Virus record (IMG/VR): IMGVR_UViG_3300035212_000658
Location: 1 to 27,989 of that record
Origin: a virus
Taxonomy: Duplodnaviria > Caudoviricetes
Length of the DNA stretch: 27,989 nt
Strand: one strand, 5' to 3'
Both the position numbers and the translations under genes were made by a program. Within the stretch, counting starts at the first letter, position 1; each line of letters opens with the position of its first letter. Under the pieces are notes generated by a model that was not told the DNA's origin, searched no databases, and saw nothing but the letters and a program-made list of their open reading frames with translations. Positions 1,693 to 14,208 of this stretch are shown here, one piece after another.

Positions 1693-1700
1693 TATATTTG
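1693..1700 (+). promoter_or_regulatory. -7 promoter box for small RNA 1 (TATATTTG)
   Basis: TAnnTTTG directly upstream of a structured non-coding unit. Confidence 0.65.
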
Positions 1701-1704
1701 TGGC

Positions 1705-1806
1705 AACAGTACCCGAACGCATACCGTCAGAACTGCGTACCAGTCATGGGTCGTTTACTTAGCCCGTTGTAAGGTTTGTGGTTATCCTTGCAACGGGTTT
1801 CTTTTT
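1705..1806 (+). ncRNA. Putative small RNA 1 (bulged hairpin plus 14-bp terminator hairpin)
   Basis: Stems ACCC/GGGT (1711-14/1748-51), ACGCA/TGCGT (1717-21/1734-38) and AGCCCGTTGTAAGG/CCTTGCAACGGGTT (1761-74/1786-99), then a T-run. Ends are approximate. Confidence 0.7.
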
Positions 1807-1813
1807 ATCTTTG
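1806..1813 (+). promoter_or_regulatory. -7 promoter box for small RNA 2 (TATCTTTG)
   Basis: TAnnTTTG at the same distance from the second unit as in unit 1. Confidence 0.6.
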
Positions 1814-1817
1814 CGCC

Positions 1818-1911
1818 AATCAAACCCGACACGCCTCTGACCTAAGCGCACTTTGTCGGGTCGTTTCAGCCAGTCGTAAGGTTTGTGGTTATCCTTGCGG
1901 CTGGCTTTGTT
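1818..1911 (+). ncRNA. Putative small RNA 2 (paralog of small RNA 1)
   Basis: Stems ACCCGACA/TGTCGGGT (1824-31/1854-61), CGC/GCG and AGCCAGTCGTAAGG/CCTTGCGGCTGGCT (1868-81/1893-1906). The 23-nt GTAAGGTTTGTGGTTATCCTTGC is identical to unit 1, with compensatory changes in the outer stem. Confidence 0.7.
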
Positions 1912-2107: not shown

Positions 2108-2129
2108 TCGCACATTAAAACCAAACCAC

Positions 2130-2384
2130 ATGACCTACTCACTCCAACAACTTGAGAACGCTATTCACGTAGCTAATTTCAAAAAAAATGACGACTGGCA
2201 AATAATCGTATCAGGCTCGGACATTTTGCACGCCAAATGTTCCGCTATCATTAAAGTCAGCAGCGTTCAGCTTGGCACGTTAGCCCGCGCAATGCAAGTC
2301 AACTGCGAAGAAAACGATGGCGTTTACTCGCTAACCTTTGAACATAACACAAACCAAGTAATCTTTCAAACCATAATCTTATGA
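2130..2384 (+). CDS. Hypothetical protein (84 aa; start re-assigned to ATG 2130)
   Basis: The track start at 2097 overlaps the promoter. ATG 2130 follows the leader AAAACCAAACCAC. Confidence 0.7.
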   Translation: MTYSLQQLENAIHVANFKKNDDWQIIVSGSDILHAKCSAIIKVSSVQLGTLARAMQVNCEENDGVYSLTFEHNTNQVIFQTIIL

Positions 2385-4999: not shown

Positions 5000-5021
5000 C
5001 AGCACATTAAACCACATCAAA

Positions 5022-5213
5022 ATGAGAACATCACACGTCCTTTCGCTACTTCGTTCGGGTAGTTATTCCAAGCAATCAATTGCGTTGCTTGTAGGTCAGC
5101 AAATGGGTCGCAAATGGAGTATATCAGTTATTGAATCCGACCTTAAATACCTAAAGAAAATCTACCACGTTGAACAGGATGGTAATTTGTACACGATAAT
5201 TAACCAAGACTAA
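5022..5213 (+). CDS. Small putative winged-helix DNA-binding protein
   Basis: 63 aa with a helix-helix-helix-hairpin-like pattern (SKQSIALLVG...SISVIESDLKYL...VEQDGNLYTI). First gene after promoter B. Confidence 0.5.
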   Translation: MRTSHVLSLLRSGSYSKQSIALLVGQQMGRKWSISVIESDLKYLKKIYHVEQDGNLYTIINQD

Positions 5214-5225
5214 AACCAAACCACA

Positions 5226-5555
5226 ATGGAAACCAAAATGAAAGATTGCCCTGATTGCGAAGAAGGAAAGTATTATGTTGATACAAGCAGACAATGTACT
5301 AAGACCCCGTGGCAAGAATGCTGCGGAGGTTGCGGCTACGAGGTAACGTGCGAAACTTGCAACGGCACGGGTGAAATTGAAGATGAAGATGACATATTCA
5401 GCGTTGGTAACAAGTTCAAGTACTTAGGGCTGGATGCAATAGTGACCAATGTAGAATTTAGTATATACAGCGGCATCACATACACAATCCTTGTGGAATG
5501 CAGCGGTGTTGAATTAAAAGTAAATGCATTAAGTGAAACCCTTAAAAACCGCTAA
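5226..5555 (+). CDS. Cys-rich zinc-finger protein (DnaJ-like CxxCxGxG repeats)
   Basis: CPDCEEG, ECCGGC and CETCNGTG. Confidence 0.65.
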   Translation: METKMKDCPDCEEGKYYVDTSRQCTKTPWQECCGGCGYEVTCETCNGTGEIEDEDDIFSVGNKFKYLGLDAIVTNVEFSIYSGITYTILVECSGVELKVNALSETLKNR

Positions 5556-11871: not shown

Positions 11872-12390
11872 ATGAAAACAGAAACTGTAAAAATATCGGA
11901 GGTTAAAAGCAACCCCAACAACCCAAGAATTATCAAAGACGATAAGTTCAAGAAGCTTGTTGAATCTGTTAAGACGTTTCCTGAAATGCTAAACATTCGC
12001 CCTATTGTAGTAAATAGCGACATGGTGGTGCTTGGTGGTAATATGCGGTTACGTGCTTGTAAAGAAGCTGGTTTGAAGGAAATACCGATAATCAAAGCCG
12101 ACACGTTAACGCCCGAACAGCAAAGCGAGTTTATCATTAAAGACAACGTAAGCGGTGGAGAATGGGATTGGGATATGCTTGCGAATGAATGGAACGCGGA
12201 GGAGTTGGATGCGTGGGGGTTGGATGTGCCTGTTTTCGCTGGCGAGGACGAGGGCAACTTTGATGATGAGGGTATAGACGGAAAAAGCCAGTACGGGGTG
12301 ATTGTAATGTGCGAAAGCGAGGGTAACCAAGAAAGCGTTTTTAGGGATTTACAGGGTATGGGTTACGAGTGTAAAGTTGTCGTTACATGA
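11872..12390 (+). CDS. ParB N-terminal (ParB/Srx) domain protein with a small C-terminal domain
   Basis: NPNNPRII...KLVESVKTFPEML..RPIVV...VLGGNMRLRAC...IIKDNV..GEWD. Confidence 0.88.
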   Translation: MKTETVKISEVKSNPNNPRIIKDDKFKKLVESVKTFPEMLNIRPIVVNSDMVVLGGNMRLRACKEAGLKEIPIIKADTLTPEQQSEFIIKDNVSGGEWDWDMLANEWNAEELDAWGLDVPVFAGEDEGNFDDEGIDGKSQYGVIVMCESEGNQESVFRDLQGMGYECKVVVT

Positions 12391-13082
12391 TAATAAAAGT
12401 TAGGAATAAAACGGGGGAGTTTACGGGCTACAGGGCATCCCGAGTAAAAAGCCTATTTAACGCGGAGAGCGGGTCGGAGTTTAACCTCGATGCTAACCTA
12501 CCAATCGAGGGAATGGATTGGCAAATAGGGCTAATTGTGGGCGCAAGCGGAAGCGGTAAAACCTCAATCGGAAAAGCACTTTTTGGGGGCGGTAAAATTG
12601 TGGACTTATACGCTGGCTGGGATAACAACATCCCGATAGTTGAGGCAATAAGCCCCGATGGGGACTTTAACTCGGTTACGGGTTGCCTTGCAAATGTCGG
12701 GCTTGGTGACGTACCGAGTTGGCTTAGGCCGTTCAGCGCGTTAAGCAACGGGCAGCAGTTTAGGGCGGGGCTTGCAAGGCTTATATCCGATGCGCCTGAT
12801 GAGGTTATCGTGGATGAGTTCACCTCCGTAATTGATAGGCAAATTGCTAAAATAGGCGCGATGGCTTTTGCTAAGGGGTGGCGAAGGAATAAAGGTAAAA
12901 AGGTCGTTTTGCTTGCGTGTCACTATGATATTATCGAATGGCTACAGCCCGATTGGGTATTTGATACGGGAACGGGCGAACTAAAAAAAGGGAACAGCTC
13001 GAGCCAAGACCAAGCTTCGAGTTGGAAATTCGGAAGGTCAACCAATCTTACTGGCGATATTTTAAGCCGCATTACTATTTAG
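12387..13082 (+). CDS. ABC-type ATPase (N-terminal part of a frameshift fusion with the GNAT)
   Basis: Walker A GASGSGKT, signature LSNGQ, Walker B VIVDEF and H-loop CHYD. No transmembrane partner. Confidence 0.88.
   Translation: MIIKVRNKTGEFTGYRASRVKSLFNAESGSEFNLDANLPIEGMDWQIGLIVGASGSGKTSIGKALFGGGKIVDLYAGWDNNIPIVEAISPDGDFNSVTGCLANVGLGDVPSWLRPFSALSNGQQFRAGLARLISDAPDEVIVDEFTSVIDRQIAKIGAMAFAKGWRRNKGKKVVLLACHYDIIEWLQPDWVFDTGTGELKKGNSSSQDQASSWKFGRSTNLTGDILSRITI
12983..13024 (+). other. Putative programmed -1 frameshift signal
   Basis: In-frame A_AAA_AAA at 12983-12989, a 5-nt spacer, then hairpin CAGCTCGAGC/GCTTCGAGTTG at 12995-13024. Confidence 0.7.
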
Positions 13083-13501
13083 ATTTACCCATGCCCCCAG
13101 CGGCAGAGTACTTTATCGGTACGGTTGACGGTGAGTTGGTTTGTCATTTAGCGGTTGGTTGTATGTTTCAAAACGATGCCTACAGGGCAACAAGATTGGT
13201 GGTTATGCCCGAATGGCAAGGCGCGGGGGTCGGAACAAGGTTTTTGGAGTACGTGGCCGAATACCATAAAAAAGGCTTAGGCCGATGCGCCAAAAAATTA
13301 CCGTGCATGTTTCATACATCGCATCCACAACTAATCGGATATTTACAAAAATCAAAAAAATGGGTACTAAAAAGCCAGCAATTACACGGTAACAAATCAA
13401 GAATTAAAATGCAAATCGGTTCGCCATCTGGGGGAACTAAAAAATTTATGGGCGGCCACTTTCGGGCGGTGCAAGGCTTCAAGTACATAGGCGATAAATG
13501 A
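12989..13501 (+). CDS. GNAT-family acyltransferase (-1 frame, open upstream of the track TTG 13022)
   Basis: RPSFELEIR..WRYFKPHYYL and TRLVVMPEWQGAGVG (GNAT motif A), plus HTSHP. Confidence 0.85.
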   Translation, partial: REQLEPRPSFELEIRKVNQSYWRYFKPHYYLDLPMPPAAEYFIGTVDGELVCHLAVGCMFQNDAYRATRLVVMPEWQGAGVGTRFLEYVAEYHKKGLGRCAKKLPCMFHTSHPQLIGYLQKSKKWVLKSQQLHGNKSRIKMQIGSPSGGTKKFMGGHFRAVQGFKYIGDK

Positions 13502-14208
13502 CGCACGAATTTTACCAAGACGAGAAAAAGCTGCGGGTTTTTATTAGCGGTCAAAAGTATTTTGGGGGGCTAATACTCCGAGAGATGCTAAAGAACCCGC
13601 TCGTTGACGTGGTAGGCGTTTGCTGCCCATTAGACGACACGCATATTGGAAAGGCCGCAGTACTTAACGGGATACCAATGGTGGCGGCTGGGTCGCTTAA
13701 CGTGGATACAATGCCCGAAAACGTGGACTTGGGTATCACCGCACATTCATTTGATTACATAGGCAAGAAAACGCGTTACAAGGCGAAACTTGGATGGATT
13801 GGATACCACCCGAGCCTATTACCAAGACATAGAGGGCGCTCGTCTATTGAGTGGGCAATAAAGATGCACGACTTTGTAACAGGCGGCACAACCTTTTGGC
13901 TTAACTCGGGTATTGATAGGGGCGACATAATTGCACAGGAGGTTGTATGGATAGACCCGAAGCTATTTAGCGTGGACGTAAAAAAGGCGGCTAAGGCGTT
14001 ATGGGAGGGCGAACTTCAAGACGTAGGCGTTAGGCTTATTAATCAAACGGTGGCCGACATAATCGCTGGGCGTGGCAAAAGAACACCCCAACAAAATAAA
14101 TTTAGTACCTTTGAGCCGAGCCTAAAAGTTAACGACATTTACCGCCCAGATGCGCTAATGATTGAACATAGGCCATCGGATAAAACAGCGAACTTACAGC
14201 GTGGCTAA
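13498..14208 (+). CDS. N10-formyl-THF-dependent formyltransferase (Fmt/PurN superfamily)
   Basis: YHPSLLPRHRGRSSIEWAI and GGTTFWLNSGIDRGDIIAQ. Lacks the Fmt C-terminal tRNA-binding domain. Confidence 0.9.
   Translation: MTHEFYQDEKKLRVFISGQKYFGGLILREMLKNPLVDVVGVCCPLDDTHIGKAAVLNGIPMVAAGSLNVDTMPENVDLGITAHSFDYIGKKTRYKAKLGWIGYHPSLLPRHRGRSSIEWAIKMHDFVTGGTTFWLNSGIDRGDIIAQEVVWIDPKLFSVDVKKAAKALWEGELQDVGVRLINQTVADIIAGRGKRTPQQNKFSTFEPSLKVNDIYRPDALMIEHRPSDKTANLQRG

Follow-up and report, generated by a model that had tools for sequence, protein, structure and literature searches.

The locus examined here raises the question of what two structured small RNAs, each behind its own promoter, could do for the phage that carries them. 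The window (the whole stretch of DNA analysed, 27,989 nt) is a virus record, 76% complete, containing genes for Erf, a Gam-like protein, SSB, primase, helicase, terminase and tail proteins.

Layout and gene setting of the cassette

Two small-RNA units are located in a non-coding stretch 5′ of the first gene of the replication/recombination block. Their features are as follows.

1693..1700, plus strand: −7 promoter element of Bacteroidota type, unit 1 (TATATTTG), 4 nt 5′ of the motif
1703..1760, plus strand: antitoxin-type hairpin of unit 1, predicted class A AbiF leader, with AACAGTAC head
1711-1714/1748-1751, plus strand: outer stem of unit 1
1717-1721/1734-1738, plus strand: inner stem of unit 1
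1722-1733, plus strand: loop of unit 1 (TACCGTCAGAAC)
1726..1731, plus strand: GTCAGA, stretch of the unit 1 loop complementary to the unit 2 loop
1739-1747, plus strand: 3′ bulge of unit 1
1761..1806, plus strand: terminator-like 14-bp hairpin and U-tract of unit 1 (hairpin 1761-1799, loop 1775-1785)
1806..1813, plus strand: −7 promoter element of unit 2 (TATCTTTG), overlapping the U-tract of unit 1
1825..1861, plus strand: predicted abiF motif (RF03085 type) of unit 2, outer and inner stem
1835-1845, plus strand: loop of unit 2 (CTCTGACCTAA)
1836..1841, plus strand: TCTGAC, reverse complement of 1726-1731
1849-1854, plus strand: CACTTT bulge of unit 2
1868..1911, plus strand: terminator-like 14-bp hairpin of unit 2 (hairpin 1868-1906, weak U-tract)

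A sequence-only reading had described two units with promoter elements, hairpins, a 23-nt core and loop 6-mers, and all of these were located where it had placed them, the first hairpins spanning 1711-1751 in unit 1 and 1823-1861 in unit 2. Its view of the units as two conserved structured small-RNA genes with Bacteroidota-type promoters was borne out, and the stems covary. The term paralogous, which it applied to the pair, is well backed for the terminator hairpin only; the first hairpins belong to two loop classes on one scaffold.

The identical cassette was found in G010, a complete terminal-repeat virus record that is a twin of the window. The cassette was also present in G017 and G018, records with a different gene context, which points to exchange between phages. 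When cultured phages were searched for the cassette, 11 weak matches were obtained and none was real. A search of the window for tRNA and tmRNA genes detected none.

Several other features of the window were recorded. Upstream of unit 1, at 1468-1527 and 1580-1645, there are direct repeats (27 nt with a spacing of 33, and 15 nt with a spacing of 51) that occur in varying combinations in relatives and are possibly an origin or a protein-binding array. The region 1912-2060 consists of short modules shuffled among relatives, including two TTTGTTAATTC repeats, GTGCAC-type inverted repeats and the palindrome ATTTAGAAT-C-ATTCTAAAT at 2037-2055; these modules are possible operator or decoy sites. Two consecutive ORFs, 12387-13501 and 13498-14208, correspond to the two halves of a single PHROG family (phrog_11143); a gene resembling phosphoribosylglycinamide formyltransferase is also present.

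Unit 2 resembles the abiF motif

The sequence-only reading had found no assignable RNA family for either unit, and this did not hold. A comparison with Rfam gave no match in the window at the gathering threshold; below the threshold, unit 2 matched abiF (RF03085) with 32.7 bits against a gathering score of 37 (E 6.3e-4 in a permissive scan and 5.5e-6 within the genome). The alignment covers all 37 positions of the abiF model with every pair kept, and the unit has the abiF layout, namely an outer stem, a 3-bp inner stem, an 11-nt loop with CCUCU, and a 3′ bulge. Several natural leaders 5′ of Abi genes likewise score 29–37 bits on the abiF model. Unit 2 folds better than its shuffled versions (z −3.78). 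Judged by these features, unit 2 is an abiF motif lying just under the Rfam threshold.

The loop-and-bulge pattern of unit 2 was found in at least 120 viral stretches (about 170 estimated), and an outer stem of at least 5 bp was present in 44 of 65 distinct contexts among the matches listed. Changes on both sides of the pair were observed for 7 of 9 pairs in an abiF-type set of 24 full sequences (the window, 21 viral copies and two bacterial leaders). Annotated Abi genes in Hymenobacter (L363) and on a Pseudomonadaceae plasmid (L517) have leaders similar to unit 2, that of L517 with a CACACTT bulge 5′ of its Abi gene; the unit 2 of a relative also matched the Hymenobacter Abi-gene leader by blastn, weakly (H76, E 7).

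Two other settings of the motif were observed. In many related records, viral or from mobile elements (L037, L039, L046, L052, L062, L070, L072, L108 and kin), a lone abiF motif stands ahead of structured cassettes that vary, with Abi_2 absent in the 3 records tested. In L068, an orphan abiF copy immediately follows an ORF at 1038-1454 with an Acb2/Tad1-like hairpin domain, which belongs to a known anti-defence family; the arrangement is consistent with an anti-defence cluster.

Unit 1 represents a second class of AbiF leader

Unit 1 had no match to Rfam abiF (RF03085) up to E 10 and no other Rfam match. Its identity came from the genes that follow its loop in other genomes. Viral sequence yielded 80 stretches with the unit 1 loop, of which 43 are distinct, and most of these have an AAYAGTAY head and a variable stem; metagenomes yielded 120 stretches (92 distinct, of which 80 pass the stem filter). 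In bacterial-looking contigs, a gene starts within approximately 20–30 nt 3′ of the motif. Pfam Abi_2 was detected in 15 of 30 downstream ORFs tested; these ORFs were picked from 51 candidates (92 distinct metagenome contexts) with a preference for long or Abi-like ones, so the figure is not a rate. The other genes found 3′ of bacterial-looking copies encode type I HsdR (2), glycosyltransferase (2) and DUF1016 (1). In cultured Prevotella nigrescens and Chryseobacterium shandongense, the leader precedes annotated Abi genes; otherwise, its natural context was drawn from metagenomes and plasmids. Model R1, constructed from 18 Abi_2-adjacent leaders only, identified window positions 1703-1760 at 36.8 bits (E 1.6e-5). 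We refer to the class defined in this analysis by model R1 and the unit 1 loop as the class A AbiF leader.

The proteins adjacent to class A leaders retain the HEPN R-N-x-x-x-H motif, and their sole match among solved structures was PbAbiF (8VZ6, E 4e-43). In a protein tree, 12 Bacteroidota class A members formed one branch (support 100/97). A second protein branch carries the class A loop as well (L366), with a similar loop in L516, and a single clade for all class A loops was rejected (p-AU 0.003); this second branch makes the rule of one loop class per toxin clade approximate only. In L366 and L516, which are from two Gammaproteobacteria, the related loop sits on a bulged abiF scaffold 5′ of Abi genes, indicating that units 1 and 2 are variants of one scaffold. 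The Rfam abiF model itself detected 0 of 5 and 0 of 4 class A loci in two scans.

Across 38 class A sequences, both partners vary in 9 of 10 pairs, among them the A-U/U-A pair that closes the loop; this count, like the others given here, takes the sequences as independent despite kinship. Loop variants in phages mirror natural ones, with GTAAGA occurring in both L019 and P. nigrescens. Unit 1 as a whole folds better than its shuffles (z −2.48), its first hairpin alone being unstable (z +0.70). Its 9-nt 3′ bulge is absent in Bacteroidota class A leaders and is similar to the bulge in the abiF leader of B. fragilis; for this reason, unit 1 may not fit a class A toxin. Taken on its sequence, unit 1 is a second AbiF leader class, found 5′ of Bacteroidota Abi_2/AbiF genes and missed by Rfam.

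A scan of bacterial genomes with a phage-biased loop variant gave 7 matches, mostly in reading frames and none with the AACAGTAC head, which were set aside as chance; model R1 produced one partial, weak match among them. In eight loci (L213, L246, L248, L255, L288, L295, L324 and L358), a conserved GAATAGCCYAAGKYATAAG element lies 3′ of the class A motif, in some of them near a tRNA-like sequence. In L260, L308 and L325, the class A leader is directly 5′ of a type I restriction HsdR gene or an HsdR-like start with no Abi gene between, and L308 additionally has an abiF motif; these are orphan leaders in defence islands.

Promoters and terminator-like hairpins

The promoters in the window match the Bacteroidota consensus, TTTG/TANNTTTG, as it is given in the available part of PMC6847099. 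No TTTG element at −33 spacing was seen by eye for unit 1, and a sigma-70 scan is uninformative for promoters of this type. The 4-nt spacing between promoter element and motif in unit 1 is that of 7 of 19 natural AbiF leaders, which suggests that promoter and leader were captured together. Some natural class A leaders (Prevotella and similar contigs L269, L284, L319, L360, L368 and L370) have an extra 5′ hairpin that puts the promoter element approximately 40–50 nt upstream.

Both 14-bp hairpins have 11-nt loops, TTTGTGGTTAT, and share an identical 23-nt core (1769-1791 in unit 1 and 1876-1898 in unit 2) enclosed by outer stems that differ. They fold well above shuffled sequences (z −6.55 and −6.61), with 0 of 200 shuffles as good. 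A terminator scan of the window, whose loop limit is 3–8 nt against the 11-nt loops here, returned 0 sites. Searches with the terminator loop gave 90 distinct viral matches, 19 of which have the stem, and 14 of the 19 are from the window's cassette. The loop may also represent a third antitoxin class, for which no natural context was found, 2 plasmid matches being attributed to chance. A near-identical hairpin loop, GGTTTGTGGTTAT, occurs in unrelated phages (L379 at 701-720 on the minus strand, L008 and L011), the L379 copy being a 12-bp terminator at a gene end.

The phage copies lack the toxin gene and retain their stems

The window (76% complete) has no Abi_2 gene. None was found in 48 virus records carrying the motifs, including 18 near-complete ones (≥90%), G010 among them; both positive controls of the search were found. 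Of 95 ORFs listed nearby, 78 were tested and gave no match to Abi_2. Both units can thus be described, at the level of sequence, as AbiF-type antitoxin RNA motifs without the toxin gene.

Class A and abiF copies occur in many phage lineages. Many phages stack several hairpins of mixed classes, either between one promoter and one terminator or as separate units. Among 18 phage-only class A copies, 7 of 9 pairs change on both sides, with 29 cells of such double changes compared with 10.8 in shuffles. These orphan copies in phages are under selection, with stems kept via compensatory changes. Variable stems together with fixed loops and bulges, the loop conservation being partly built in by the search patterns, are the pattern expected of an AbiF-binding RNA.

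Further modules were noted in the arrays, with an abiF-like scaffold, a CACACTT bulge and a long loop containing GGATT-[hairpin]-GGTCG. The GGATT/GGACT module is also found inside terminator stems, and these are likely to be more decoy classes. Loci with GGATT modules are L158, L165, L171, L201, L228 and L232 (3′ of the match) and L021, L023, L028 and L299.

A probable role as decoy antitoxins

RNAs with the abiF motif act in trans in Prevotellaceae and Clostridioides difficile, where they bind and block the dimeric AbiF. The available text of PMC12737573 and PMC13064643 describes how the motif binds and blocks the AbiF HEPN dimer, the bulge contacting the active site, and that of bioRxiv 10.1101/2025.04.15.648962 and PMC12373285 describes RCd22 as neutralising AbiF in trans and tolerating compensatory stem changes. 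Copies of the AbiF leader without the AbiF gene are therefore likely to be decoy antidotes that keep a host self-destruct enzyme off. Weighing the whole analysis, we consider it probable that units 1 and 2 are decoy antitoxins silencing host AbiF, two classes side by side, like the pseudo-ToxI of phage phiTE.

By this mechanism, the phage would have captured promoter and leader from host AbiF operons and added a closing terminator hairpin. Both RNAs would be made early from the host-type promoters and replace the host antitoxin lost in takeover, the antitoxin being supplied in trans, as in phiTE with pseudo-ToxI. The class A leader would act as an antitoxin like the abiF motif, and the two units would bind and silence two different host AbiF (Abi_2, HEPN RNase) toxins. 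Both classes would be maintained because loops and bulges differ among AbiF clades. In addition, the terminator loop common to the two units may have an antisense function on early leaders of the phage.

Two other explanations bear on the same observations. The units could be neutral relics of captured AbiF operons that lost the toxin and were kept as promoters and terminators only, and bacterial-looking contigs do exist in which the class A leader stands before broken or missing Abi genes (L282, L302, L316, L260 and L308). The double changes that keep the phage-only stems are difficult to reconcile with this, as are the many phage lineages, the mixed-class arrays and the dedicated terminators that were added; the relic explanation was already disfavoured and is very improbable. 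Alternatively, the hairpins could act as decoys for another RNA-binding HEPN defence, Cas13-like or related, or for toxins of co-resident mobile elements, and not for an anti-phage AbiF. AbiF is described as a Cas13 ancestor in the available text of PMC12737573, AbiF may also be an addiction module (Saunier et al., as far as accessible), and phage RNA mimics of CRISPR repeats exist (PMC10651486, available part). Against it, the gene 3′ of bacterial-looking copies, where identifiable, was mostly Abi_2 (15) and never Cas13, and none of the CRISPR repeat families matched units 1 or 2. This alternative is highly unlikely. Likenesses to the Cas13b repeat, T-box/tRNA-CCA and the phi29 pRNA were compared via Rfam only and dropped upon the Abi_2 link.

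Decoy antitoxins aimed at AbiF remain the preferred reading. It can be extended: phages of Bacteroidota may keep mix-and-match RNA arrays covering several AbiF clades, and in this lineage the 5′ hairpin may neutralise host AbiF and the 3′ loop may base-pair with early leaders of the phage itself, so that counter-defence is tied to early-gene timing, with a loop-loop kiss perhaps joining both decoys as a bivalent inhibitor. Taken in full, this extension is rather unlikely.

Complementarity between the two first loops

The 6-mers GTCAGA (1726-1731) and TCTGAC (1836-1841) are exact reverse complements. The sequence-only reading took them to form a kissing-loop heterodimer of the two RNAs, or an intramolecular kiss on read-through. 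Such a heterodimer, if functional, would possibly be a bivalent inhibitor. In shuffled loops, a 6-bp Watson-Crick run appeared in 0.46% and one of at least 5 bp in 2.5%, before allowing for other noticeable loop pairs. The predicted loop duplex has −8.7 kcal/mol, with a cofold gain of about −6.6. Within the lineage, 14 of 16 pairs (the window's cassette counted twice) keep at least 5 consecutive pairs including G-U; however, the sixth loop position is mismatched in 9 of the 16, and in the two-class arrays of other lineages the complementarity was at most 4 bp in all nine pairs (three of the nine being close kin). As for covariation between the loops, one double change was found at the sixth pair, which is G-C in the window and U-A in G018, but true pairs were no better than re-paired ones (4 Watson-Crick at position 6 versus 2.5 on random re-pairing, p 0.21).

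The distribution of the two loop sequences is also relevant. Of 16 paired unit 1 copies, 12 contain TCAGA, compared with 0 of 5 solo ones (Fisher p 0.006, the copies being related and not independent). On the other hand, unit 1 stands without unit 2 in five members of the lineage. TCAGA also occurs naturally as the loop in 9 of 19 bacterial leaders, and a CCTCTGA partner was found near none of these. Of 17 viral abiF copies that bear the stem and contain CTCTGA, 13 lack a unit 1 motif in the available surrounding sequence (4 of the 13 loci being short). Each half of the kiss is explained by AbiF-leader mimicry alone. The kiss is not the best explanation and a functional heterodimer is unlikely, though a kiss confined to this one lineage may exist.

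A candidate antisense role for the terminator loop

The UUUGUGGUUAU loop of the terminator-like hairpins may pair with AACCACA leaders of the phage's promoter-proximal, likely early, genes and dampen their translation, as an added or even the main function. Such a role is compatible with the decoy reading. The candidate targets in the window are as follows.

2124..2130, plus strand: AACCACA in the leader of the first downstream gene (ATG 2130)
5010..5016, plus strand: AACCACA in the promoter-proximal leader of the ORF at 5022
5219..5225, plus strand: AACCACA directly 5′ of ATG 5226

Among 41 starts tested, the leader at 5226 gave the best duplex (−10.4 kcal/mol). Of the AACCACA sites on the plus strand, 3 of 5 in the window and 26 of 57 across 11 records (the window and G010, its twin, both counted) are no more than 22 nt from a start codon, start regions making up approximately 3% of the DNA. 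With G010 left out, it was present in 10 of 37 promoter-proximal leaders and 9 of 670 other phage leaders; these 19 compare with an expectation of 3.1 when the leaders are shuffled (at most 11 in 1000 shuffles), and AACCACA ranked top of all 35 7-mers of the same composition. All these counts come from related records and are not independent. The full 11-nt complement, ATAACCACAAA, is in the leader of several relatives. In G017 and G018, which have the cassette without AACCACA leaders, the 3′ half of the terminator loop has drifted, yet TTTGTGG persists there despite the missing targets. Further points weigh against an antisense role: the duplexes in the window are only 7–8 bp (−9.5 to −10.4 kcal/mol), loop and leader showed no matched change, start regions in Bacteroidota are in any case rich in A (PMC6847099, available part), and an unanchored 13-mer search was not significant (16 versus 10.3, with 7 of 100 shuffles as high). 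The sequence evidence leaves an antisense role possible, though somewhat doubtful.

Comparison with known systems and implications

The antitoxins AbiFr and RCd22 (abiF, RF03085; PDB 8VZ6; PMC12373285, as far as its text was available) have the same scaffold as the units, likewise right behind a promoter: an outer stem, a short inner stem, an 11–12-nt loop, a 3′ bulge and a U-rich tail. Two tandem motifs occur both here and in RCd22. In the AbiF type III toxin-antitoxin system, Abi_2 is downstream of the RNA, whereas the phage cassette has no Abi_2, and each phage motif has its own promoter and terminator. The name RbiF for the RNA was found in 0 papers; AbiFr appears in a review, in the part available.

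Phage RNA mimicry of a type III antitoxin is already known. According to the available text of Blower et al. 2012 (PMC3475682), pseudo-ToxI of phiTE, directed against ToxIN, is likewise a phage-encoded, toxin-less copy of a type III RNA antitoxin, of a kind that would counteract abortive infection in trans. There, the toxin is ToxN and the RNA consists of pseudoknot repeats that expanded in the laboratory; here, the toxin would be the HEPN protein AbiF and the RNAs are hairpins in stable genes bounded by promoter and terminator, found in many wild lineages and in mixed-class arrays. Racrs, the RNA anti-CRISPRs (PMC10651486, available part), are likewise solitary phage decoys of the RNA element of a defence system; they mimic CRISPR repeats, while the units here mimic AbiF leaders.

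Orphan phage abiF RNAs are also in print without a confirmed function. An orphan abiF sRNA in cyanophage S-CREM1 and those of three other phages in Rfam likewise represent the abiF motif in phages; the accessible portions of PMC9964418 and PMC12197685 leave their role unconfirmed and draw no tie to AbiF neutralisation. In comparison with what those portions contain, the present analysis adds a second leader class, the absence of the toxin at the level of whole records and mixed arrays. A search of the accessible literature retrieved no paper proposing or testing phage AbiF decoys or describing the class A leader, and in the papers covered there was no report that class A proteins act against phages or are neutralised by RNA. 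The word abiF is absent from the main text of PMC5737381, and no AbiF phage decoy appears in the available part of a 2026 editorial on counter-defence (PMC13728456).

If the decoy reading is true, it would give a function to orphan phage abiF RNAs that have so far been unexplained. Type III antitoxin RNA mimicry, previously known from laboratory escape mutants of one phage, would then be a widespread natural counter-defence against AbiF, a proposed Cas13 ancestor. The class A leader, missed by Rfam, can be used to find AbiF systems and decoys, and the loop and bulge variants form a ready panel on how AbiF clades read their RNAs. The abundance of the decoys would also be indirect evidence of AbiF acting against phages in aquatic Bacteroidota.
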